Assembly (NCBI RefSeq): GCF_004010195.1
Contig: NC_057730.1
Span: forward strand, 41,327,034 to 41,391,033
Source: Chiloscyllium plagiosum
Taxonomy: Eukaryota
Reading direction: 5' to 3'
DNA length: 64,000 nucleotides
Part shown: one piece after another, positions 3,521 through 63,728 of the stretch
Layout: the number at the start of each line of letters is the position of its first letter
Position numbering within the stretch: the first letter of the stretch is position 1
The notes under the pieces: generated by a model
Told to the model about the DNA's origin: nothing
Databases searched by the model: none
Seen by the model: only the letters and a program-made list of their open reading frames with translations
Translations under genes and position numbers: made by a program

Positions 3521-5494
3521 AAAACCCGGTTCAGTGACTGAGACCTCCACATTTAATCACCTCCATGCAAAAATAATTAGTTCAGAGTTACAAGTTTATG
3601 GGCCATTATGACTTACCTTGAACAAACATATTATGAATGAACTGCATTCACTCGAAGTTCCTGAATCCAATAACACTTGGATCTGATTATTGTAAAAAAT
3701 ATGACAGACTGGAGAGCCTTTTGTCTTTACTTAACCAAATCTAAGCATTTTCTCTTGATGTATGAGATGTTAGCTAGACTAAAACTGGAAAATTCAGACC
3801 AATTTCTATTAACTTCTGTCACTTAAGAGTGGATATGTGCTTTTGTAAAGCAAATCAACAACCTAATCGAAGAGTGTTACATGTTAAATTCCAACAAATG
3901 TCCTCCCCTAGGAAAAAGATTTGGAAGGTCCAAAGGATTTTCAAACTGTAACTCAACTACTTATACATCCTTTGAGGGCAATGGTTATGTTATTTCAACA
4001 TTGCAGCTGGAAATTTCTGGCATGTGAAATTGAATTATAGAGTCATGTCAGTGCATAAATGGAATCATTATCATCACATTGGGCTAATTTATTTCAAGTG
4101 TTGATGTTACAATTTAAGCACTTTCCTTGGAAGCTCAATGATTAAAACCTCATTTCCACACTTGGTGAGAATAGGTGGCCAAAGGGACACCAAAATCAAG
4201 AACAGACTCTTTGATTTGCAGCGTTGAATTCACTTAAACAGCTAAAAAGATATGTACGGCAGCCCGAAAGCTTTCAGATCACTTGGAAGCCATTGCTAAA
4301 AGTCACTGCAGTCGGAATTGGAGACTATGGCACAATAAGGTTGTAAGTGTAATTAAGTCCTTATATTAGTTCTTGGAAACCATAGGATTTCCTGTGAAAG
4401 TTGTCCATTACTTGAAACTTGACTAACATTTTATTAAAGTTTTACAACTTTGTTGATTGCATTGTTATTTTCATTGCTGGCCCAAATTTCTCACTGATTG
4501 ACTTAGGAATTAAACCCTGAGCTACTCCAACATGTGAACCTATCACATGGATCTGACAATACCTGAAGGCATATCCCAACTGTGGAGCGATACATGACTT
4601 ACCAACAACATAACATCAAACTTCTAAATTATAGGAAGCAAAAGCTTGGTAGAGGCTGAATTTTTCAATGAGCATGCATAAGAGTGACATCAACAGAAAC
4701 ACAACATATATTTAGTTTTTCCATCAACCAGGTGGCCAACCTGAATATAAACCTAATTTGATAATAAAATCTATCTGGACCTGTCCATGAAAACTGGGAT
4801 TCCATTTGGCCACTATGAAGTGTGTAATTTATCATAAATGAGGATAGCCTATTTATTTACACAAGCAAAGAAAACAAGTTGTCAAAAGTTGGGTATCGAT
4901 GTCCTTCCTAAGGATTGGGGTTACTGATGGAATTTAATACACTATACCAGGTAATTTACCAGTTTTGAGTGTTCTGGTAAGTGTCCTGGTAAGTGTCCTC
5001 TGCTTACACAAGAATCATCCAACCCATTAAATTCTTATTTAGTGGCAATGACCTAATCTAAATAGTGCTTCTCTAAATATCAGCAACGGTGGTCAATCAT
5101 GACCAACTGTCTGGAGTATGACGCACTTGCCTGGTTTATGCATTGGATTACTCAACCTACCACACAGCAAAGTGATTTTAAAAATATTCCATTTCACTAA
5201 AGATTCACACCACTGTAAAATCAAGCCTTACTCCTGGGCTTAAGCACATAACTTAGATGGGTAATTCAGTGAGGGAGACCTGTCTCATCAGAAATGTCTT
5301 TTAGCTGATATACCAAAACAATCTGTTCCAGTAATGCCGCCAAAACAAAATGGCACTATCCAAACTAAGTGGACAGTGGGAACACATGTATGTTGTCACT
5401 ATACTTCCCATAAATATTGTTACTGCATTTCACACTCGTGAATTACATATTCCACAAGCTCAAAGTACAAGTACCTTTTACAGAAAAACTTTAC

Positions 5495-7201: not shown

Positions 7202-7345
7202 GGAGAAAGTGAGGACTGCAGATGCTGGAGATCAGAGCTGAAAATGTGTTGCTGGAAAAGCGCAGCAGGTCAGGCAGCATCCAAGGAACAGGAGAATCGA
7301 CGTTTCGGGCAAGGGCTTATGTGCTTTTCCAGCAACACATTTTCA
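7202..7345. mobile_element. Short palindromic Penelope-derived element (family A), internally deleted
   Basis: Same sequence as 42829-43025; flanked by actcag/aaaaatacag duplication (7187-7201, 7346-7359); partial hammerhead (cccgaaacgtcga on minus). Confidence 0.75.
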
Positions 7346-7541
7346 ACTCAAAAATACAGCAGAGTATGCTTTAACATAAAGTCACGAAGATGTATAGCAC
7401 GGAAATAGACCCTTCGGTCCAACTCATCCATTCCGAACAGATATCCAAAATCAATCTACTGTAATTCCATTTGCCAGCACTTAGTCCATGTCCCTGTAAA
7501 CCCCTCCTATTCATATAACCATCCAGATGCCTTTTAAATGT

Positions 7542-7654
7542 TGAGTGTGTGGTGCTGGAAAAGCACAGCAGATCATGAGACAAAACGTTGAGTGTGGTGT
7601 TTTTCCAGCACCAAACTCTCCACTCTAATTTCCAGCATCTGCAGTCCTCACTTT
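7542..7654. mobile_element. Family A mini-element nested in CR1
   Basis: Perfect 14-bp TSD tgccttttaaatgt (7528-7541, 7655-7668); inverted arms gtgctggaaaagcac / gtgtttttccagcac. Confidence 0.75.
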
Positions 7655-8018: not shown

Positions 8019-8410
8019 GAGTTAAAAATCACACTACACTAGGTTATAGTCCAACAGGTTTATTTGCAAGTACAAGCTTTCGGAGCATTGCTCCCTCATC
8101 AGGCAGCTCGTGGAGTAGGATGATAGAACACAGATTTATAGCAAAAGATAATGGTGTCATACACTGATGCGATATATTGAATAAACCTAGATTGTTGTTA
8201 AGTCTTCGAAAAGATGAAAGACTTAACAGCAATCTAGGTTTGTTCAATATATTGAATCAGTGAATGAAACCATTATGATCTTCTGCTGTGTCCTATGAAC
8301 CTACTCCATTAGCTACTTGACGAAAGAGCAGCACTCCAAAAGCTTGTACTTCCAAATAAACCTGTTGGAGTATAACCTGGTGTTGGGTGATTTTTAAATT
8401 TGTCCACATC
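8019..8410. mobile_element. Palindromic Penelope-derived element (family B), ~190-bp arms
   Basis: Inverted arms centred near 8212 (ttaagtctt..aagacttaa); hammerhead-like core in each arm. Confidence 0.78.
8071..8105 (-). ncRNA. Minimal hammerhead ribozyme motif (family B)
   Basis: Minus strand ugc-CUGAUGA-G-GGAGC-AAU-GCUCC-GAAA-G-CUU-gua; palindromic AGCU at helix III. Confidence 0.6.
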
Positions 8411-10583: not shown

Positions 10584-10671
10584 TCACCTGATGAAGGAGC
10601 GTCACTCCAAAAGCTGGTGTGCTTCCAATTAAACCTGTTGGACTATAACCTAGTGTTGTGTGATTTTTAAC
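10584..10671 (+). mobile_element. Family B Penelope-derived terminal fragment with decayed hammerhead
   Basis: cCTGATGAaggagcgtcactccAAAAgctgg..aaacctgttggactataacctagtgttgtgtgatttttaac. Confidence 0.72.
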
Positions 10672-15699: not shown

Positions 15700-17527
15700 A
15701 TTGAACAGAAAATGTGCCTGTGTGGTTGAAGGAATCAATAGCTTCTGCTTTCATACTTGAAATGGTTGATATTCTGGAAAAGCCTGATTGCAGTCTATTT
15801 TCTGTACAGCTATACTGAGAGCTGGATCAGTGTCAAGGACTCTCCACGTGTAGATAAAGGGTGACTTGGTGACGGAATACTGGCCTCTGTGGAGTTATTT
15901 CAGAGGTATATGTCAGATATAGACAGCTGGGATCAAGTAAATCTCTTGAGGTGTAAAGGAGGTGGAGGAGTACCCTTAAGAGGAAATCAGGAGGTCAGAA
16001 AGGGAACATGAGATAGCTTTAGCGGATAAGATTAAGGAGCATCCAAAGAGATTCTATGGTATACTAAGGGCAAAAGCGCAATTAGGGAGAGAATGGGACT
16101 CCTTTTAAAGGCCAAAGAGGCCAATTATGTGTCGAGATGGGTGAGATCTTAAACAAATATTTCGTACCAGTATTTACTGTGGAAAAAGACGTGGAAGCTA
16201 GGGAACTCGGAAGTAAAAAGCTGTCTTGAAAAGAGCTCATACTACAGAAGAGGTGGTGTTGGAGGTCTTAAAACGCATAAAGTTAGATAAATTCCCCAGG
16301 ACATAATCGAAGACTTTGGCATGGTAGACTGTTTAGTAAGGTTAGATCACATGGGATCTAGGAGGAGCTTGTCAATTTGATACAAAATTGGCTTGAAGGT
16401 ATGAAATAGAAAGTGGTGGTAACGCGTTGCTTTTCGGACAGGAGGCCTGTGACAGTGGTGTGCCACAAGGATCAATGTTGGGTCCACTGCTTTTCATCAT
16501 TTATATAAAAAATATGGATGGGAATATAGGAGGCACGGTTAGTAAGCTTTCGGATGACATCAAAATAAATGGTGTAGTGGACAGTGAAGAAGATTATCTC
16601 AGAGTACAATGGGACCTTGATCAGATGGAGTTTAATTTAGATGTTGAGGCGTTGCAATTTGGTAAGACAAACCAGGGTAGGACTTAGACAGTTAATGTAG
16701 GGCCCTTGGGAGTGCTGCCTAACAAAGAGACTGAGGGTTGCAGTGACTTTGCAGGTAGATAGGGTGGTGAAGAAGGCATGTGGCACATTTGCCTGTATTA
16801 GTCAGAACATTGAGTGTAGGAGTTGGCACATCATATTGTGCCTGTACGGGACATTGTTGATAGACAGGCAGGACACTAGAAGAACATAGCAAGCCAGGCA
16901 GCATCAGGAGGTGGAAAAGTTTGGCTTGCTGTGTTCTTCCAGCCTCCTGCCAATCTATTTTGGATTTCAGCATCTGCAGTTTTTTGTTTCTGTCTCTGGA
17001 AAGTGGTGAGGCCACGCTTAGAATACTGTGTATAGTTCTGGTTACCCTTCTGTAGGAAGGATGTTGTTATACTTGATACCATTTAGAAAAGATTTACAAG
17101 GATTTTGCTGGGGTTGGGGAGTTTGAGTTATAGGGAGAGGCTGAATAGACCGGGGCCTTTTTCCCTGGAGTGTTGGAAGCTGAGAGGTGACCTTGGAAAT
17201 TCATAAAATCATGAGCATAGGGTGAATAGCCAAAGTCTTTTTCAAAAGTGAGGAGTCCAAAACTAGAGGGCGTATCTTTACGGTGATTTGAAAGGGTCCT
17301 GAGGGGTAACGTTTTCAAGCGGAGGGTGGTATGTATATGGAATGAGCTGCCAGAGAAAGTGATGGAGGTTCGTACAATTGCAACATTTAAAAGGCATCTG
17401 GATGTGTATATGAATAGGAAGGGTTTAGAGGGATATGGGCCAAATGTTGGCAAATGACACTGAGTCATACTAGGATGTCTGGCTGATATGGACAAGTTGG
17501 AACTGAAGGATCTGTGTCCATCCTATA
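15700..17527 (+). mobile_element. CR1 LINE fragment in the SMCR8 intron, with a nested palindromic family-A-like element (~16860-17000)
   Basis: SGVPQGSMLGPLLFIIYI and KLSDDIK motifs; CR1 3' tail; insert gcaagccaggcagcatcagg..ttggcttgctgtgttcttccagc..cagcatctgcag. Confidence 0.88.
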
Positions 17528-21600: not shown

Positions 21601-23326
21601 CTTAATGTGGTGGCTGTACAAGTTTAAACCCCAATCCAGAGGTGTCTAATCTAAACTTCATTACTATAGTAGGTGCTGTGACATGATTGACATGATCATG
21701 AAATGATGTCTGCCTTTCCAGCTGGAGAGCAGTTTTACTACCCTAGCCAACATTTTATCTTTCCAATTAACATCAATAAAAGAGATTACATTCTCATTGG
21801 TGTTTTCAGAACCTTGCTGTGCAGAGTCTGTTTTTCTGTAAGTGACTACACTTGATAAGATTGAACTGACTGTTGAACATTGACACATCCTGAGCTTGTA
21901 AAAGATTCTGTAAATATAAATTCTTCCTGTCACTGAGCATTGAGTAATGTCCCTCGGTATCTGCAACATTTGGGTAATTCTAACAGTGTGCTGCAGGTGA
22001 GCATTCTTTTCTGGAGGTCGATATCCTTAAGCTCTACTTTTACACTCTCTTCCTATTTCCCTCCACCACCCAACCCAAAAATACTCAAGCCTCTGAATAA
22101 TATATTTTACCTACAATGTTTCCTTTATGAAAATGTTCAAAAAAGTTGACCTTGCTTACTCACCTCTCCACTGAAACTATTTTCTAAAAGAAAATTGAGG
22201 TTTTTATTAATTTATTGATCCATATTTTAATTCCCTTTCTCGTTATATTTAAGGATGCACACTTGTTGGTTGCAGCCCTGTTTTGAGGATTTGCCTGAGT
22301 ATTCAGACATTGTTGTTCTGGCAAGATGTTCATTGAGGAAAAATACTTCTGGAGTTTGGAGATGTGCAACTGTTTCAAGCAATTTATGTAGGATTGTCAA
22401 GAGTCAGAATCCAGTTTTCCTAATCACAACATAGTTCTGAGATGACATCATAATAGTCCCTTAGTTTACACTCCATGTACTTCGGAATTACCTAGAATAA
22501 TGTGCTCTAACATTTTCATAGTGCAACATTAACTTGCACACAACATTTTAGAAAGAGAATTTGAAGATGAAATGGAACCTATGTTTGAGATCTCTCTGTC
22601 ATCTTGTCCTGGAGGCATTTATTTTTTATTGGTTTAGGAGCTATTGGTGCTTTCTGCAACTTCTCAGCTGTATGTGAGCAAACTGAGAGTTGAAGCATGA
22701 TACCTAGGTATTATCTGCCTCTGGTTTAGCATATCTCCCAGTCAGGATCATTAATATGCAGTTGGAAATAGGAGTTCTCACCAGCACAGGAATGTTAGTT
22801 CTGTTACTTTGTCAATTCTCTCAAGTGGTGTGGAAATATGAGATTATTAAAAATTGATATTATTTAATTAGACATCTTCCTTTGTTTTGAGAATTTATTT
22901 TGTGTTCTGGAGCTGTGCATTCTTTTTTTGTTGTTCCAATGTCTGGAATCTTCCATTGCTGCTGAATCCTTTCTATACTACAATATATAATTTATTACTT
23001 TGTCTTATTTTCTTGTTTCCTAGTTCACCTTTTTAAAAAGTGATAGAAATTAATAAATTGCATTTGAGCGAGCAGACCATGCACCACCTGATAAATCATG
23101 TAACTGTATAATCTGGCTGAGTACAAACCCTTTTGAGATTCATTAAATTTATTTGAAGTGCTGCATTTTTGATGCTGGTTAATTCATTTGAATCTAAATT
23201 TAAAAGCCCAATGAATGCATTGAACATTTCTATATCCAATTTCTGTCAAATCTGTTGGCTTACTGAGGATTTGCTCTAAATGTCTGGCAACAGCTATAAT
23301 GCAAAATGTGTAACTGCTCTGAAAGG

Positions 23327-23408
23327 AAGGGCTCATGCCCGAAACGTCGATTCTCCTGTTCCTTGGATGCTGCCTGACCTGCTGTGCTTTTCCAGCAACA
23401 CATTTTCA
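23327..23408 (+). mobile_element. 82-bp family A insertion in the probable SMCR8 3'UTR
   Basis: Perfect 17-bp TSD gtaactgctctgaaagg (23310-23326, 23409-23425). Confidence 0.85.
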
Positions 23409-24761
23409 GTAACTGCTCTGAAAGGCTGGCATATGAGTGAATAGAAAGCATCTATTTGCTGAGCACATTAACATCCTACTAAACAATGCATGTTAACCAG
23501 CATGGTGTAACAGAACTGACAGTTAAACTTGGCTCAGCACTATACAATTTTGCATTGCTACAGTCTGAAAACAAAGTGTATAATTTTAAAAAGTACATTT
23601 AAAGATACCATGGGTTTCTGTCAAAACTTATTTTAGAAAGAAAAATGTTTTTTTAGAAACATTGTAAATACAGTTGTTTGCACTAATGCATTGATTGCCT
23701 TCTTAGCCCAACTCAGAACAACTTAATGTAACTACCATACAAAAAGCTCATGTGTGACATAATCAGTCACTTAAGTAGTTAATTACAACTTTTATTTTAG
23801 TACAGGGGGTGATTTGTTGATTGAATTGCGTTTTATGTTTATTTTTCTAATACTTACCACCAGAAATATCAATTTTCCTGGACACAAAGATCAGTAAGTG
23901 GGAGCAGAAACCTTTTGGGTATATACAAATCCATGGTACTGATGCAACTGAGCCAGGAGAAACTTGCCTACTGCATTTTCCTGGGACAATACTTAAGTGA
24001 GCAGCATTCCAGAACAGAAAACTCATGGTCATGAAAAAGAGCAACTCAGTGTGAGTGCACTGATCCAGCCTGTGGCAAAGAGATATAGAAAATATCCCAT
24101 TTCTTTTTAAATAGCCTTTAGAGATCTTTTGTCTTAGCAAGCCTTGGGAATAGTCCATTCAATCTGCTAACGGTCAAAAGCAATATTAGACAATGGAAGT
24201 AATGTCTAATGTGTAAGTCTGTGAGATGCCCAAATTGTGTCCAAAGCTGAGGTAGTACTAGATTATTTTCCATTCTTTGAATTTATGTGGTGTAGTCCAA
24301 CATCAGTCGGCATTGAAAGGTAACTTCTCCTGAAACACAAGTTCTCAGCCAGCTTAGACGTGTCTGGATGCTATTACTTACAGTAATCATTGCATGCAGA
24401 AGCATGATATTTTCATTTGTTGAACAATGTGAATGTAATTTGAATTTTACCTTGTGTCCAGTAGCTGGTCAAAGATGGCTGAAATCTGTTTACATATGGG
24501 CATAAACACCTCTGTAACTGTATGAATAGTAGTCAATGTGCATGAAGAATCACTAGCTAATATGGGTTCCTTTTCCAGGGATAGAATGTAACAGTCTGAT
24601 TTTATTTTATTTCTGAATTTTTTTCTAATTGGCAATTTGAGGAGACCATCAGTCATATATTTGAAACTGTAATTATGTTGTATCAAACTGGACTCTGTTC
24701 CTTTTAACCCCATCCTTTAATTCCTTATATATTTAAAAGGTACTTAGTATTGTAAATAAAA

Positions 24762-28330: not shown

Positions 28331-28809
28331 CTTCTGCCCTTGTGGATCTAACAAGTGGAGAGGGAATTCAGTAAATAATTCAGTCACCGAGATTTGTAAT
28401 GTTGCTGACCTCTCTTTATTGCCTCGGGGAAATTGAAGCGAAGGAAAATAGACAAATCTGTAAGTTCTGTTTCGGCTTCCGGGGCTGTTATACAAATAAA
28501 TCTGAGAGATATGAAGAGGTGTAGATTCACATAGTGTAACTTCCATTTATATCATGAGTGTAAATTTAGTTTCTTTCTAATTACGTGGTTATTCTCAATT
28601 TGTCCTGGTTCTAAACTCCATTTTTATAGAAAAGTATTTGTAAAGTGCAGAGCAGAAAATTATTCTGCAAGTTTTGCTGTAGTTAGCAGTTAGTTTGTAG
28701 CAATGAGTGGATGCAACAACTTCATATTTCAAAATCATAATCTTCAGTTGCTGTCAAAGAAATGTCCAATTAATTTCATCCTTCCCCAAAAATGGGCTCA
28801 GTAATGTCA

Positions 28810-28917
28810 GCAGAAAGTGAGGACTGTAGATGCTGGAAATCAGAGTTGAGAGTGTAGTGCTGCAAAAGCGGAGCAGGAGAATTGATGTTTCAGGCATAAG
28901 CCCTTCATCAGGAATTC
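28810..28917 (-). mobile_element. Family A fragment in the TMEM11 intron with a near-intact antisense hammerhead
   Basis: Minus strand gaauuc-CUGAUGA-A-GGGC-UUAU-GCCU-GAAA-C-AUC-aauuc. Confidence 0.7.
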
Positions 28918-31649: not shown

Positions 31650-33610
31650 TGCTGGTGTTGGACTGGGGTGAACAAAGTAAAAAATCACATGACATTGGGT
31701 TATAGTCTAACAGGTTTATTTGAAACTGCAAACTTTTGGAGCCCCTATCCATCCTCTGGCAGCTAGTGAGAGAGAATCCATTGGAGACACAATTTATAAG
31801 TAAAACATCAAAGGGCTGTGCAACTTATGCAAATATATTGAACAAATCTCATGGCTTTTAAGTCTTTAATCAGTTAGAATGGGAAGTGCAGGTTTGATGG
31901 ATTAATATGTAAATCTTAGAATTTCTTTCACTGTGTCACTGTGTCATCCCGTTTTCCCCCTCACACTGAGCAAAACACTTAGACACAATATAGTTTTACT
32001 TCCTTCATCTTTATTCCGGGCCCTGGAGGGAGAGAGAATGACCGCCCATGTGCACGGAGATATAAGTTCTCGGTCTTATCTTGAAAAGCAGTTTCTTGTG
32101 GAAATATGTAGACCTTTTTACAGGGAGGAGCATCCAGATAAGGCAACATACATATTAATTGGGTGACCATTACAATCAGTGAGTGTCAATAGTAAAGATT
32201 AAGCTATCTGCTGTTACACAATGAATGTTCTTAACCTTAACTGGCTTCACATAATGAATACTTTTCACTTTGTTAAACTGACCTTACATACTGAATGCTT
32301 CCAATATTAAATGGCTCTCCATAATGAATGTTTTTCCAACTTGTTAACCATTACCCTTGCCTCCAGCACTCTATTGTTGTATTTGCAAATGTTCATTCTC
32401 CCCATAGATTTATATGTGCAGGTGTATGTACATAAAGAGGATGGAGAGAGAGTGTATGTACTGAGAGGGAATATGTTGGAGTGTGAGGGAGTGTATATAT
32501 GTGTGTATGAGAGAGGGTCTGTGTGTGTAATGTGGCAGGATTACCTGTAGCGTGACATGAACCCAAGATTCCAGTTGAGGCCATCCTCATGGGTACCAAA
32601 CATGGCTATCAGCCTCTGTTCAGCAATTCTGTGTTGTTGCATGTTCCGAAGTCCACCTTCAAGGACAGATCTTCAGGTAATTGTCCTCCAAGGTGAACTT
32701 TGGGGCACGCAACAATGCAGATTTGCTGAACAGAAACTGATAGCCATGTTTGGTACCCATGAAGATGGCGTCAACTGGAATCTTGCATTCATGTCACTGT
32801 ACAGGTGACCCAGTCACATTATGCACACTCATACATACGCTCTCTCACAAACATACATAGATCCTCTGTCATCCACTCACTCACTCTCTCATGGGCATAT
32901 ACAGAGGTACCTCGATTATCTGAATGATACAGGAGGGGAGTATTTTGTTCAGATAATCGAATGTTGGATAATACAGTTTAGCCAAGCATCGGGACCTTGC
33001 GATATTCTGATTATCAAGGTTCCTGTGCACTCCCTCGCACTTGCACGCATGCTCTCTCATATATACACTCCATCACAAACTCTCAATCCCTCTCAAGCAC
33101 GCTCTCGTGTGCTCCTCCATCTTCACACGCGCGCACAAATCTAAAGGATCAATTTGTATTTACATTTACCTTCTATTTTGTTCAAAAAACACACAATCTG
33201 TAGCCAGTCAGTGATGCATTTTATAAATTCCTACTTTGAAAATAAAACCAGTCTGACTCCAGTTTGAGATACAAACAGACTTGAAACAAAGCCTCGCACA
33301 TAAATGCATTGTCCAACCTGAGGTGTTACCATCATTCTCATAAAACTTCAAGGCTTATCATGGGTAGCAGTGACTTGAAAGAAATACTGGGATTTACCAA
33401 TTGATCACTCGAAACCTGCACCCCCATTCTAACTGATTAAAGACATAAAAGCCATCTAGCTTTGTTAAATATATCCACATGGGTTGTATGACCTTTGATC
33501 TTCGACTTATAAATTCTCTGTCTGCCTGAGGAAGGAGCAGGGACTCTGGAAGCTTGCGGTTTCAAATAAACCTGTTGGACTGTAACCTGGTGTTGTGTAT
33601 TTTGGCTTTG
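31650..33610. mobile_element. Head-to-head (fold-back) Penelope-like element, family B, with GIY-YIG C-terminal remnant
   Basis: Inverted termini 31650-31930 / 33370-33610; inner palindrome 32545-32810 centred ~32672; ORF 32557-32808 has VLQG..AEQKLIAMFGTHEDGVN, like a PLE endonuclease C-terminus. Confidence 0.8.
32902..33027. mobile_element. Tigger/pogo-like MITE nested in the Penelope-like element
   Basis: TIRs cagaggtacctcgattatctgaa / ttctgattatcaaggttcctgtg, preceded by TA. Confidence 0.7.
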
Positions 33611-33639: not shown

Positions 33640-33825
33640 AAAGTGCAGTTACATGGCCACCTTCATTCTAGGGCGGGAGTGAATGGAGTTGGGGGCAGGG
33701 TTTCATGAACAGGGAGTAAACTTTTTAAAAACTCCAAGCCTCAGAAGAAAAGCATTTAATCAATTAACCGAATAATCGATTATCTGAACGAAATAGTGCC
33801 CGCCTATCACGTTCGGATAATCGAA
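33640..33825. mobile_element. Related Tigger-like MITE end, cut by a CR1 insertion
   Basis: cgattatctgaacg..cgttcggataatcga matches the 32902-33027 TIR motif; CR1 begins inside it. Confidence 0.5.
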
Positions 33826-34750
33826 GTTTGCAGATGACACCAAAATTGGAGGTGTCGTGGAACTGCTAAAAAGGTTACCGCAAATTACAACAGGATCTTG
33901 ATCAGATGGGCCAGTGGGCTGAGGAGTGGCAGATGGAGTTTACTTTTGATAAATGTGAGGTACTGCATTTTGGGAAAACAAATCTTAGCAGGACTTATAC
34001 ACTTAATGGTAAGGTCCTGATGAGTGTTGCTGAACCAAGAGACCTTGGAGTGCAGGTTCATTGCCTCTTGAAAGTGGAATCTCAGGTAGATAGGATAGTG
34101 AAGAAGGTGTTTGGTATGCTTTACTTTCTTGGTCAGAGTATTGAGTACAGGAGTTGGGAGGTCACGTTGCAGCTGTACAGGAGATTGGTTAGGCTACTTT
34201 TGGAATATTGTCTGCAGTTCTGGTCTCCTTCCTATTTGAACGATTTTGTGAAACTTGAAAGGGTTCGGAAAAGATTTCCTAGGATGTTGCCAGGGTTGGA
34301 GGATCTGAGCTATAGGGAGAGGTTGAACAGGCTAGGACTGTTTTCCCTGGAGTGTCAAAGGCAGAGTGTTGACCTTTATAGAGGTTTATAAAATCATGAG
34401 GGGCATGGATAGGGTAAATGGACAAGGTCTTTTCCCTGGGATGGGGGAAGTCCCGAACTAGAGGGCATAGGTTTAGGTTGAGAGGGGCAAGATATCCAAG
34501 AGACCTAAGGGGCAACATTTTCATGCAGAGGGTGGTGCATATGTGGAATGGGCTGCCAGAGGAAGTGGTGGACACTAGTACAGTTGCAATATTTAAAAGG
34601 CATCTGGATGGGTATATGAATAGAAAGGGTTTGGAGGGGTATGGGCCGGGTACTGGCAGTTGGGACGAGATGGGGTTGGGTTATCTGGTCAGCATGGGTG
34701 AGTTGGTCCAAAGGGTCTGTTTCCATGCTGTATGTCTCTATGACTCTATA
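33824..34750 (+). mobile_element. CR1 LINE 3' fragment in the TMEM11 intron
   Basis: KFADDTK, WAEEWQMEF..KCEVLHFG, LEYCLQFWSP, WNGLPEEVV, FKRHLD; tail ..tctctatgactcta. Confidence 0.93.
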
Positions 34751-40554: not shown

Positions 40555-42180
40555 TGTAGAGATATACAGCACAGAAACAGACCCTTTGGTTCAACTCATC
40601 CATGCCGACCGGATATCCTAAATTAATCTAGTCCCGTTTGTCAGCAGTTGGCCCATATCCCTTCTGAACCCTTCCTATTCAGATACTCATCCAAATGCCT
40701 TTTAAATGCTGTAATTGTACCAGCCAATTCATTCCATACACTCACGACTCTCTGTGTGAAAAGGTTGCCCTTAGGTCCTTTTAAATGTTTCCCCTCTCAC
40801 TCTAAAACTATGCCATCTATTTCTGGACTCCCCCACACTAGGGAAAAGACCTTGATTATTTACCCTATCCATGCCCCTCATGACTTTATAAACTTCAGTA
40901 AGGTCACCCCTCAACCTCCAATGCTCCAGTGAAAACAGCCTCAGTCTATTCAGCTGCCCCCTTTAGCTCAAACCCTCCAATCCTGGCAACATCTTTCTAA
41001 ATCTTGTCTGATCCCTTTCAAGTTTCACATATTTCTGATAGGAGGGAGACCAGAGTTGCACGCAATATTCCAACAGTCTTGTTCAGCCGCAACATGACCT
41101 CCCAACTCCTATACTCGATGCCCTGACTAATAAAGGAAACCAATAAAGAAATGCCGCCTTTACTATCCTATCTACCTGTGACTCCACTGTCAAGGAGCTA
41201 AGAACTTGCACTCAAAGATCTCTTTGTTCATCGACACTCCCCAGGACCTAACCATTAACTGGAGAAGTCTGTTTTGGCTTTCCAAAATGCATCACATCAT
41301 GTTTATAAAAAATTAAACTCCATCTGCAACTCCTTGGCCCATCTCATCAACATCCCATTGTAATCTGAGGTAACCTCCTTTGCTGTCCACTACACCTCCA
41401 ACTTTGGTGTCATCTGCAAACTTACTAACTATACCTCCTATGTTCACATACAAATCATTTGTATAAATGACAACAAGTAGTGGACCCAGCACCGATCCTT
41501 ATGGCACACCACTGGTCACAGGCCTCCAGTCTGAAAGGCAGCCCTCCACCACCATCCTCTATCTTCTACCTTTGAGCCAGTTCTGTATCTAAATGGCTAG
41601 TTCTCCCTGTATTTCATGTGATCTAACCTTGCTAACCAGTCTACCATATCGAATGCCTTACTGAAGTCCATATAGATCACTTACACCACTCTGCCCTTGT
41701 CAGTCCTCCTTACTTCAAAAACTCAAAGTTTATGAGACATGATTTCCCACGCACAGTCATGTTGACTATTCTTAATCAGTCCTTGCCTTTACAAATAAGT
41801 CTAAATCTTGTTCCTCGGGATTCCCTCCAGTAACTTGCCCACCACAGATGTCAGGCTCACTGGTCTGTAGTTTCCTGGTTTTTCCTTACCATCCTTCTTA
41901 AATAGTGGCACCACGTTACTCAACCTCTAGTCATCCGGCACCTCACCTGGGACTATCATTGATACAAATATCTCAGCAAGGGGCCCAGCAACCACTTACC
42001 CAGATTCTCTCAGAGTTGTAGAGTACATCTGATCAGGTTCTGGGGATTTATCCACCTTCATGTGTTTTCAGACATCCAGCACCACTGCCTTCTATAATAT
42101 GTCACCATCTATTTCCCCACATTCTCTATCTTCCATGTTCTCCACAGTAAACACTGATGCAAAATACTCATTTAGTATAG
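40555..42180 (-). mobile_element. CR1 LINE fragment
   Basis: Colinear with the 865-2935 copy over the RT region and 3' tail. Confidence 0.92.
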
Positions 42181-42828
42181 GTGTATATAGCTGTGGCAGC
42201 AGGAAGTAAATGCAATGTTTCCATGTTCCATTAAGTTATTCACCAGTTCTTTAAATTAATAGCTTTTTCCCGAACACTAGGCCAACAGAAAGTCCATTCG
42301 TGCAGAGAACTGTTGGATGAACTTCAAGATTTTTGGGGAGAGGAGGGGTATGAAATCAGGAGATAACATGATGAAGATTGGACATCTGCAGTGATGTAGT
42401 TGGAATTCCCGTACGATCAGGGAGTTTGTTATACTGCAAGTGAAACAGTCTGTCAGGGATTTGTGAAAGTGAAAACTAAGTATTCTATAGAATTAGTGAT
42501 TGTTATCTTTTTGTCTATATAGGATGAATGAATATGCTAGAGTGCTACAAAATCCTTTTGAGAATTTATCAAGTATTCTTGAAGTTCCAAGTTTGTAGAT
42601 AATTATGGTTAAATGGTTGCGAGATGTGTGCATAGATTGAGATAGTTGAATTTTTCAGCAGTATACCATTAATCTGAGGGTTATCGATTTTTCTTCCCTC
42701 ATTAAGAATGAAGTGGATCAGATTTTCAACTCTTTTTTTTCTGTCTTTGTTTGGAATGTGAACATAAGTTGGCTTGCCCTGTGCCACTTTTATCGATATG
42801 CCTTAATGCTGACAACAATCTATAAATG

Positions 42829-43025
42829 TGTTACTGGAAAAGCACAGCAGGTCAGGCAGCATCCAGGGAACAGGAGAATCGACGTTTCGGGCATAAGCCC
42901 TTCTTCAGGATTCCTGAAGAAGGGCTTATGCACAAAACGTCGATTCTCCTGTTCCCTGGATGCTGCCTGACCTGCTGTGCATTTTCAGCTCTGATCTCCA
43001 GCATCTGCAGACCTCACTTTCTCCT
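42829..43025. mobile_element. Palindromic family A Penelope-derived mini-element with two opposed hammerhead motifs
   Basis: Palindrome centred at 42911 (tcagga t tcctga); 16-bp TSD caacaatct(a/c)taaatg at 42813-42828 and 43026-43041. Confidence 0.88.
42876..42913 (-). ncRNA. Intact minimal type I hammerhead ribozyme motif
   Basis: GAAUC-CUGAAGA-A-GGGC-UUAU-GCCC-GAAA-C-GUC/GAUUC: 5-bp stem I, 4-bp stem II, full core, palindromic ACGU helix III, GUC triplet. Confidence 0.75.
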
Positions 43026-44107
43026 CAACAATCTCTAAATGCCAAACCAACTGGGCTTGTGGCAAATCTGAGTAACATTGCCAATTTGCACTCTATTTAT
43101 ACTGAGAGTTCGCTTCCAAATGTGTTTAAATAGAGAATCAGCTTTTTGATAGAGACGCCTCTGACCAGTTTGGTTTGGAATTTACTCTCTGGTTATCAGT
43201 TGACAGATGAGTGTTCTGCTAGTTTTCAGCAATGTTTCTTTCTTGGGTCAAATAAACTTTTTTCTTGTATCTATCCCCTTGACATGGATAAATTTATAGC
43301 AGTACGTTACTGCAATGTCCTTCGGTGAAATCTTTGTGCGGATGACGGTCAGCTGGCATTTAGCAGTAACTCAGCTGGAAATGCCCACTTTAAGAGACAC
43401 ACACACACACAGTCACTTTTTGCTTGTTGAGCTTTGTAGTGCTTACTTAAAAAGCTTCACATTCTTGAGTGGACTGCACAAGTGGTATTCAGGAATGGTA
43501 AGTAAAGTCAGAACTACAGATTCGCTATTGCTGGAAAGTAATTTTACTTGTCTTGATCTGAGCATTCAAATAAGTAATTCCGTGGAATGCCTCTTGTATT
43601 GCCGGGAACTGATGCACCTTCCTTGTTATATTGCTTTCGTTTAAACCCCGGTATACTTTTTTAAAAATGGAGCAATTATCAATTTTTCTTTTTTTTTCAA
43701 AACCTGTCCACAAGGTGGAAAGTGGTTGTTGTTAGAATTGCTAATTTGACAAATGTGCTCTGGCTGAAACGAGACAGTAATGGCACTGGATAAGGGAGTA
43801 AATACATCAAACCAGCTTCTTATCATGTCATCCACATGCATATACTGAATTGCTATTATTCTTTATCAGGAGTGGGAGTATGAATGTACCACGTCTTCTC
43901 TCATCCACCACCATCACCCCACCATCACCCCAACTACAAAGGCTGCTACTGCTCTTCTGGTCAAAATAGGTCAGTTTCGTACAGGATTGGTACAAGGATA
44001 AAATAGAAACAATTCAGCAAATCACTGGGTTCGCTCATTGTGCCATTGAGGCCTTAATTCATGTAATACATGACAAAGCTCTTTTTGAGATGGAGATGTG
44101 TTATTTC

Positions 44108-55580: not shown

Positions 55581-55834
55581 ACTGTGGCACAAACCCCATC
55601 TTACACATAATAAAGAAATGTAGCTAATTTGCACAAAGCAATGTGATGACGACCAGATGAATTAATGATATTAAGGAATAAAGATTGACCATTCAACATA
55701 ACATCCTTATTGTTCTTCAAAACAGGGCCAAAGCATCACTCAAATCTAGCCAAGCCAGCAAATGGGTATCAGTTTATCATCTATGAAAGATTGTACCATT
55801 GACACTGTTGTACTGCTTCTATGTTGCACTAAAG

Positions 55835-56695
55835 TCATAGAGATGTGTAGCATGGAAACTGTCCAACTTGTCCATATTGACCAGATATCCTAGATAAATC
55901 CAGTCCCATTTGCCAGTATTTAGCCTGTAGCCCTCAAGCCTTCCTATTCATATACACATTCAGGTGCCTTTTAAATGTAGTAATTGTACCAGCATCTACC
56001 ACTTCCTCTGGAAGCTCATTTCATACATACACCACTGTCTGCATGAAAAAGTTGCCCTTTAGGTCCCTTTTAAATCTTTACCTTCTTACTTTAAACCTAT
56101 GCCATCTCGTTGTTGACTCTCCCATCCCAAGGAAAAGACCTTGTCTATTCACCCTATCCATGCCTCTCATGATTTTATAAATCTCTAAGGTCACCCCTCA
56201 GTCTCCAATGCTCCAGAGAAAACATCCTCAGCCTATCCAGCATCTACCAATAGCTCAAATCCTTCAACCCTAGCAACATGCTTGCAAATCTTTTCTGAAC
56301 CTCAAGTTTCGCAACATCCTTCCTATAACAGGTAAACCAGAATTGCACACAGCATTCCAGAAGCGGCCTAACCAATGTTCTGTATAGCTGCAACATGACC
56401 TCCCAACTCCTATACTCAATGCACGGACCAAAAAAGTCAAGCATATCAAACGCTGTCTTCACCATCCTGTCTACCTGTGACTCCACTTTCAAGGAACTAT
56501 GAACGCTATGCACTCCAAAGTCTCTTTGATCATCAACACTCCCCAGGACCTTACCATTAAGTATGTAAGTCCTATTCTGATTTGCCTTTCCAAAATGCAA
56601 CACCTCACATTTATCTAAATTCTACCATTCCATCTACCAGCTACCACTCCTCGCCCATGGGCCCATCTGATTAAGATCCTGTTGTACTCTGAGGA
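55835..56695 (-). mobile_element. CR1 3' fragment
   Basis: ORF 56244-56603 (LHFGKAN, LYRTLVRPLLECCVQFW). Confidence 0.9.
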
Positions 56696-59316: not shown

Positions 59317-60170
59317 CTGGTTTCAAATGAAGAAAAACAAGTAAATGAAATGACCGGTCACCACCTCATTACATTTCTTATGCAATCTTAACCAAATGCT
59401 TTACTATCAAATTAAAAATCCAAGCCACTGGTCTGAGGCTCAAAGTGCAGAACGTTACAGAGGTCTAAATGGTGTACTGTTCTTCCTTATTCTTATGGTG
59501 AGAGTAGGAAAGACAAGGATATTGATCAAGTTGGAAAAGAACAAACACATTTATAACAAGCCAGATGATTCTTCTTTCCAGTATCTAAACAATGCTCTCA
59601 GTTGATCCAAATCTCTTCAGCCTGTCTGCAATTAAAATAAGTTCATTGATTCACGTTGCATCTCAGAGCAGCAATGCCTTTTTAACCTCCCCCAGGTTTG
59701 CAACCTTCCAAGATCTCTAGTCATCCAACTGTGTATCCTCACTTTACTTTGATTGACCACTGGTAACCATGCACTCTGGGATTCCTTCCCTAAATACCTC
59801 TGCCTCTCCATCTCCCCTACCACGTTTCTTAAAGGCCACCTCTTTGACCTTCATCAGATCAGTGTCAATTGTTTTCCTGGATAATGTTCCTTTGTTTTTT
59901 AAAATGACAAAATATTTCACTCTGTCAAAGGTGGCATATCAATGCAATTCATGGTTGCTTCACAAAGGATTTATGTATGTTTTTATGTATATACAGAAAG
60001 ATTTTTAATAGAGAATGAAGCTGCCATCTTCTACAATTTAAGTGACTCCTCGATCCCCATTTATCCCCTCAAATTCTTCCAAATAATGACATTACAGACA
60101 TTGGCAGTAACCTATCTGTAAATGAGATCCTCACACGATATAAAACAATTCAAAGTAATTAAAAGCATAC

Positions 60171-63694: not shown

Positions 63695-63728
63695 GACGTT
63701 TCGTCACCATACTAGGTAACATCTTCAG
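63695..63728 (-). ncRNA. Minimal hammerhead core (family C), sense to DHRS7B
   Basis: CUGAAGA-U-GUUACC-UAGUAU-GGUGAC-GAAA-C-GUC; proximal stem I is mismatched. Confidence 0.6.

Follow-up and report, generated by a model that had tools for sequence, protein, structure and literature searches.

Is a small palindrome with two back-to-back hammerhead ribozyme motifs in the genome of Chiloscyllium plagiosum an independent mobile unit, or is it the end of a larger element? The question is raised by a 213-bp insert without coding sequence, located in a stretch of 64,000 nucleotides of contig NC_057730.1 (the window, to whose numbering all coordinates refer). The preliminary description had interpreted this insert as a tiny retrozyme-like element whose transcripts carry a ribozyme competing with a long hairpin.

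Architecture of the locus

The insert comprises the features below. Arm positions are numbered such that position 0 is the A of the ATTCC immediately before the hammerhead core, and the predicted cut precedes +32.

42813..42828, plus strand: left copy of the target-site duplication (direct repeat; empty site in DNA run X17)
42824..42910, minus strand: tail-less arm, from pLTR position +2 to about +89, matching the natural copy L020
42876..42913, minus strand: minimal type I hammerhead motif with intact core, predicted cut 42881/42880
42909..42911, no strand: head-to-head junction (1,570 exact junctions of the same class genome-wide)
42910..43025, plus strand: tailed arm, extending from pLTR position 0 to about +130 and lacking 14 nt near 42980
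42914..42941, plus strand: mutated hammerhead twin, C>A at 42932 (helix II) and G>A at 42934 (GAAA)
42989..43025, plus strand: one-sided tail of about 36 nt, bounded by the two positions where 3' ends of the family cluster
43026..43041, plus strand: right copy of the target-site duplication (direct repeat; empty site)

The mirrored parts of the two arms (42834–42910 and 42912–42988; 77 nt each) are 95% complementary and separated by 1 nt. They are enclosed by a direct repeat (42813–42828 and 43026–43041) that is identical at 15 of 16 positions. A 1582-nt contig from DNA run X17, which derives from another organism (D), matches 42444–42805 and then 43026–43395; six letters separate the two flank matches, and the contig contains a single copy of the repeat and no 213-bp insert. 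The direct repeat is therefore a true target-site duplication, and the palindrome and the 16-bp duplication of the preliminary description are both confirmed.

The element is asymmetric, because the tail and the 14-nt deletion both reside in the plus-strand arm. The 5 nt that close the left duplication copy (AAATG) are equally compatible with the end of the tail-less arm, which is a microhomology; this arm is 97.7% identical to L020 across 87 nt. The arms share 1 nt at the junction; if the G at 42909 represents a copied cap, as we infer, the shared stretch is 2 nt (GA).

The parent element of the arms

The arms almost certainly represent the last ~130 nt, or pLTR end, of a Neptune-type Penelope-like retrotransposon. 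The identification is based on (i) an RT/GIY-YIG ORF upstream of the arm, (ii) the linker and cysteines of its endonuclease, and (iii) an ORF start downstream of the tail. Upstream of the arm, a pyrimidine-rich stretch is preceded by the end of an ORF. A query with a piece of the linked RT yielded 150 scored matches, and the arm was present in 49 of 50 RT-selected loci, at least two of which are duplicates of others. Locus L242 repeats the layout of the palindrome at ~2.9 kb, with the duplication on both sides: a tailed antisense arm of ~600 nt is joined to a tail-less sense copy of ~2.1 kb that contains the RT and the endonuclease. Nine Pfam scans gave matches to RVT_1 (E 8e-07; 29.4 bits, curated cut-off 29.6) and GIY-YIG (E 2e-04; 21.9 bits, curated cut-off 22.6) in some cases and nothing in the rest. 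A C-terminal GIY-YIG domain following the RT and linked to the arm end was found in L242, L214, and L220, and the best Atlas matches (0.95–0.96) carry PF26215 and GIY-YIG. P0001 has a C-x4-C-x2-C linker and 2 cysteine residues within the GIY-YIG core; a CX2-5CxxC linker and paired cysteines mark the Neptune and Nematis clades (PMC8557442, available text). It is this linker motif that suggests the label Neptune-type.

Downstream of the tail, rare copies read into the ORF start (174 exact read-through matches), and the likely start codon is ~38 nt past the tail. Partial tandems, in which the pLTR and tail lead into the ORF start, occur in L241, L309, L358, and L360; L309 is an internally deleted pLTR-to-pLTR copy that begins at +1.

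Genome copy counts were obtained from exact-pattern searches. The 3' 34-mer of the arm has 74,995 exact copies, that is to say, the genome contains at least 74,995 arms, and the 33-mer of the intact hammerhead has 29,848. The arm continues upstream in 10,299 copies, in which the parent letters CTC precede ATTCC. The expectation of a mobile and abundant sequence is thus borne out by the duplication, the empty site, and the arm count. Each of the 11 most frequent haplotypes is found in long as well as short copies (90 long and 241 short arms), and therefore the short stubs are not a separate lineage. Our literature search found no paper on a shark Neptune/Penelope retrotransposon and none on shark Penelope hammerhead ribozymes; the family may well be catalogued already.

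Inverted ends, one-sided tails, and minimal hammerheads are already published for Penelope-like elements (PLEs). According to the available portions of PMC8557442 and PMC3846280, EN+ PLEs contain an inverted, 5'-truncated pLTR and a one-sided tail of 30–40 bp. The shark copies resemble these insertions in the head-to-head end, the tail on one side, the target-site duplication, the C-terminal GIY-YIG domain, and the CX2-5CxxC linker. By contrast, the locus described here is only 213 bp long and lacks coding sequence, and the duplications of the shark copies are mostly 13–17 bp, compared with 8–10 bp in the Adineta examples. The same texts state that the origin of the inverted ends and one-sided tails is unresolved. 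The importance of the locus therefore lies in the copy population rather than in the single copy: the stub is a footprint of the PLE insertion mechanism, and tens of thousands of short copies yield sharp predictions about it, namely one start site for each target strand, a capped start at a specified base, and a template RNA not cut by the ribozyme. Palindromes of this type are best annotated as truncated Penelope insertions rather than as MITEs, miRNA hairpins, or retrozymes.

Head-to-head pairs and the insertion mechanism

We catalogued 115 head-to-head pairs from pattern-selected rather than randomly sampled loci. Exactly one arm carries a tail in 111 pairs, both arms in 2, and neither in 2. 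An apparent duplication of at least 13 bp encloses 100 of the 115 pairs (maximum 10 in 300 random pairings); the duplications vary in length and are mostly 13–17 bp. A MITE (DNA transposon) was rejected as the origin of the palindromes on account of this variation and of the asymmetric ends.

Comparison between partner arms revealed that they agree at non-CpG subfamily sites (0.89–0.99, expected 0.52–0.84), whereas their agreement at three CpG sites is at chance (0.84/0.83, 0.78/0.79, and 0.85/0.85). Thus, both arms derive from the same template or from sister templates; their subsequent decay was independent, and no correction within the hairpin followed. The pairs fall into 81 junction classes, which, together with the shared subfamily letters, indicates that each palindrome was made anew at insertion. 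In 5 of 98 pairs, the arms differ at two diagnostic sites, which suggests, from the letters of the arms, that some events used two different RNA templates. The 3' ends of the family are bimodal, at ~+90–100 and at +128–135. In 88 pairs, the target bases after the tail were T first (69 of 88) and then C (48 of 88), matching the continuation of the RNA. Priming at the tail site may use 1–4 bases of such pairing.

Twin priming probably made the palindrome. In the account that we consider likely, both cut target strands primed RT on an uncut, likely capped RNA in one event, which gave rise to the two head-to-head arms and the target-site duplication. The parent would be transcribed from the initiator-like TCA(+1)TTCC, 4 nt ahead of the hammerhead core, through into the ORF, and the GIY-YIG domain would make a staggered cut ~13–17 bp wide. 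RT would then start at two internal sites, ~+130 on one target end and ~+95 on the other. These sites would be near the 5' end of the RNA, so that both cDNAs would be short and would often reach that end; priming sites in the first pLTR would leave only 95–130 nt to copy. An extra C would be added opposite the cap, and the cDNA 3' ends would join through a microhomology of a few bases (GA/TC at this locus), with repair filling in; pairing of two full-length cDNAs through GA/TC would produce the junction at the locus. We lean slightly towards a more specific version, in which two RT subunits each handle one cut strand and one fixed start site, almost never the same, and the cap-derived C mediates joining. 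If true, the mechanism explains the head-to-head inversion and the one-sided tail without self-priming, and the hammerhead has a role other than template making.

The closest biochemical parallel is the Anolis Poseidon element PAc, which in vitro cuts and extends both target strands; two internal start sites bound its tail, a dimer is predicted, and the main template is unprocessed RNA (PMC11167929, available text). The shark copies are similar in that internal start points bound the tail, both strands are extended, and the template would be uncut RNA. PAc belongs to a different clade, however, and its ORF starts within stem II, whereas the likely start codon of the shark element follows the tail by ~38 nt. 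Frangieh et al. (PMC11167929) saw no strand difference in the start site, and the available text of that paper reports neither a start-site-per-strand rule nor a pile-up of capped ends. The Anolis data therefore do not explain the one-tail rule, which goes beyond them. In L1 twin priming (PMC11702581, available text), the second target strand likewise primes a second cDNA, the duplications are 12–18 bp, and an extra G occurs at full-length 5' ends; the L1 cDNAs, however, copy adjacent and mostly non-overlapping RNA segments, whereas the shark cDNAs would cover one and the same segment, beginning at two fixed points. Within the partial coverage of our literature search, no paper was found that states the one-tail rule or a cap signature for PLEs, and no relevant paper was found on twin priming or inversion in Penelope.

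The 5' ends of the arms bear on the cap. In a sample anchored at the 3' end (102 arms from the first 3 Mb of contig C1; 91 after removal of 11 with N), 50 arms begin within −3 to +7, 20 further upstream, and 21 later. Besides the copies with the parent CTC, 3,230 copies have a G immediately ahead of ATTCC and 2,129 have an A or a T; T accounts for 35 of 100 among the A/T matches listed, which gives a G/(G+T) of ~0.81 at position 0. One base further in, this ratio is 13/50 among the matches listed. Palindrome centres, in which the letter is ambiguous, make up ~14 of 100 G matches and ~12 of 100 A/T matches. Arms starting at +1 number 5,707, about equal to those starting at 0, and therefore the 5' end of the arm is not sharp. 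None of 30 G loci continues into the parent sequence; the extra G is either untemplated or a microhomology with the partner arm. A second subfamily shows a weak excess of G (G 28, A 17, and C 55 among 100 matches listed). The sequence at position 0, TCA(+1)TTCC, fits the initiator consensus YYANWYY. An internal TATA-less promoter with an initiator is described for Drosophila Penelope (available text of PMC2377424), and in L1 insertions the cap is recognisable by an additional G (available text of PMC11702581). Judged from these sequence features, position 0 is rather likely to be a capped transcription start.

We rejected a splice acceptor as the origin of the fixed 5' end: ATTCC is not immediately preceded by AG in the parent. 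The strongest alternative to the capped start retains twin priming and ascribes the pile-up at position 0 to stalling or fall-off of RT or to a nuclease end, with the G being untemplated or a bias of microhomology. RT may add C at any template end, capped or uncapped. The spread of ends across −3 to +7, the weak G excess of the second subfamily, and the agreement between the G and the target, seen in 7 of 7 solo G copies whose duplication can be traced, are compatible with such ends, but the enrichment of G at 0 and not at +1, the fit to the initiator consensus, and the promoter of Drosophila Penelope argue against them. We regard this alternative as unlikely, although it is the one that retains the most weight beside the capped start.

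RNA reads were compared with the element. Among 2,441 + 2,533 reads from one single-cell poly(A) run, of a library type unsuited to the purpose, there was no position at which many molecules start or stop, and hence no visible RNA 5' end. A search of sequencing runs listed none recorded as RNA that contains the sequence, which is uninformative as to expression. About 2% of run X20 was covered, from a library unsuited to circular RNA; that portion gave no depth on the flanks of the locus, which does not show silence, and run X21 gave 0 aligned reads. At two positions of L241, run X20 contained strand-biased A>G differences, 241/816 vs 27/308 at 4365 (contigs ~2–3%) and 77/664 vs 10/200 at 4358, which could reflect A-to-I editing of hairpins or a few highly expressed variant loci.

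Self-priming provides a second alternative to priming on both target strands. In this case, the molecule that folds back, primes itself, and is recopied would be the first cDNA or, following the explanation of the inversion given in PMC3846280 (available text), an antisense template. The shared subfamily letters of partner arms and the clustering of junctions at short self-complementary words near position 0 are as expected from folding back, and the tailed arm reaches equally, or nearly equally, far 5' in 63 of 103 tail/tail-less pairs. In the other 40, however, the tail-less arm extends beyond the 5' limit of the tailed arm by at least 5 nt, and thus neither arm was copied from the other; each arm has sequence absent from its partner, as is also the case in L242. 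These non-nested pairs favour priming on both target strands and argue against the published proposal as far as they themselves are concerned. In addition, the end point of the tail-less arm is also seen in solo copies with duplications, and five pairs combine arms of different subfamilies. Self-priming is therefore improbable as the general origin of the palindromes.

The hammerhead motif and the retrozyme-like alternative

On the minus strand, GAAUC (42913–42909) and CUGAAGA (42908–42902) are followed by an extra A, helix II (GGGC-UUAU-GCCC), GAAA (42888–42885), and CGUC; the predicted cut is between 42881 and 42880, followed by GAUUC (42880–42876). The locus has the conserved core, an extra nucleotide after A9, the G10.1–C11.1 pair, and a palindromic loop-less helix III. 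The minimal type I hammerhead of the Penelope kind that had been read on this strand is thus present with an intact core. Of its plus-strand twin, only the loss of GAAA by G>A at 42934 had been reported; this change is correct, and it is accompanied by a C>A at 42932 in helix II. An Rfam scan, named in the preliminary description as a check of the ribozyme, gave no hammerhead family at E ≤ 10 and only 4 weak miRNA-hairpin matches. Among these, mir-680 (37.1 bits vs a gathering score of 104) was rejected as reflecting the hairpin only. The Rfam hammerhead models likely expect a loop on helix III.

The predicted fold of 42840–42982 has a z of −23.5 compared with shuffles. In the predicted fold of the whole-element transcript (minus strand), the hammerhead helices have a pairing probability of 0.000, because a 140 kcal/mol hairpin contains the motif in its second half. 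The 5-bp helix I (GAAUC/GAUUC) is created by the junction, which supplies its 5' strand; the parent has AUUC vs GAUU, with a pairing probability of ≤0.07. The proposed competition between ribozyme and hairpin is accordingly not supported. The hammerhead appears to be part of the pLTR of the parent and is predicted to be hairpin-locked and idle in this copy, which is likely an ordinary, inert repeat.

The fetched DNA, which is enriched for the search patterns, contains 313 hammerhead motifs in 1.43 Mb, compared with 0 in 0.60 Mb of shuffled sequence. Families differ in helix II stems, in helix III (ACGU or AGCU), and in helix I pairs, with a constant core; these compensatory changes were judged by eye rather than by a formal covariation test. 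Within the family, non-CpG variation of the motif, as biased by the search patterns, affects N7, loop II, and one position of helix I. On this comparative evidence, the hammerhead is a genuine feature of the parent families. In the subfamily of L005, L008, and L309, GAAUC follows the cut and forms a fully paired 4-bp helix I with the AUUC of the parent, and this subfamily would be a better candidate for cleavage. Published hammerheads of relatives either lack activity as monomers, cleave weakly as dimers, or require protein (PMC4209133 and PMC11167929, available portions).

The shark motif shares the core, the extra nucleotide after A9, the G10.1–C11.1 pair, the palindromic 15.2–16.2 pairs, and the short helix I with the pLTR hammerheads of metazoan PLEs (PMC4209133). 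Hammerhead pairs on opposite strands are already reported in the available text of that paper, but at a spacing of 100–700 bp, whereas the two motifs abut in the shark palindrome. The same text proposes that cleavage and circularisation produce the template, with which the copy ends in the shark genome do not agree: starts at the cleavage site number 261, compared with 155 at a control site, and 18 of 30 are truncated in each. Any excess of starts at the cut would be small, and very low compared with the thousands at 0 and +1.

These observations bear on the independent non-coding retrozyme-like palindrome, which would be transcribed, processed by its hammerhead, and copied as a unit. A centre shared exactly by all 1,570 fixed-centre copies and the excess of short over long arms (50 vs 20 of 91) are what such a unit would produce, and non-LTR retrozymes do derive from pLTRs (bioRxiv 10.64898/2026.07.22.740005, available text). 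They are also non-coding and carry a type I hammerhead, as does the locus. In that text, however, they form head-to-tail tandems with a hammerhead in each unit, whereas the locus is head-to-head and does not belong to a separate lineage. Only 5 of 466 arms have a same-strand head-to-tail neighbour within 300 nt, the junctions of the read-through tandems differ, and copy ends are not set by cleavage. The same centre occurs with several subfamily loops, each matched between both arms, and the hammerhead helices are not predicted to form in the full hairpin. Together with the 81 junction classes, the haplotypes shared with long copies, and the upstream RT/GIY-YIG ORF, these findings largely refute the unit, and the tiny retrozyme-like family of the preliminary description is very improbable.

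An assembly artefact, or an inverted duplication arising after insertion, has a negligible probability: inverted repeats are prone to misassembly and many long copies contain N gaps, but the arms differ at several sites plus one deletion, the CpG sites of partner arms have decayed independently in the set of pairs, and the duplication encloses the whole structure, for which an empty site exists.

Related copies and neighbouring repeats

Short head-to-tail tandems restart near position 0, in four of nine among those listed via G+ATTCC; they are formed by template jumps. The read-through copies L346–L375 are mostly head-to-tail tandems of 190–210 nt whose ends fall 60–115 nt inside the ORF start, a pattern that hints at a third start site, rarely used, and at template jumping; such dimers could be seeds of true retrozymes. 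A small non-autonomous family of tandem dimers was dropped as an explanation, because the junctions of L348, L363, and L367 differ.

The window contains ten matches of the same family (E ≤ 0.05, including both arms of the locus) as well as hammerheads and inverted pairs of other families, so that the earlier estimate of about a dozen fragments from three families was roughly right. Further stubs of the same family or its relatives are located at 7202–7349, 7548–7654, 16863–16975, 23319–23409, and 28809–28915 and include short tail/tail-less pairs. A second hammerhead family, with a GGAGC/GCTCC helix II and an AGCU helix III, is present at 8022–8397 and 10586–10671; the former is an inverted pair whose centre is distant from the hammerhead motif. 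At 32494–32859, the arms of another inverted pair resemble, by eye, the coding 3' end of another Penelope endonuclease. Further families are represented by two additional hammerhead motifs, with longer stems in helix II, at 63699–63728 and 59825–59857. A long dispersed repeat family of a different kind, 74–83% alike, is found at 869–2561, 33824–34746, 40556–42178, and 55830–56694.
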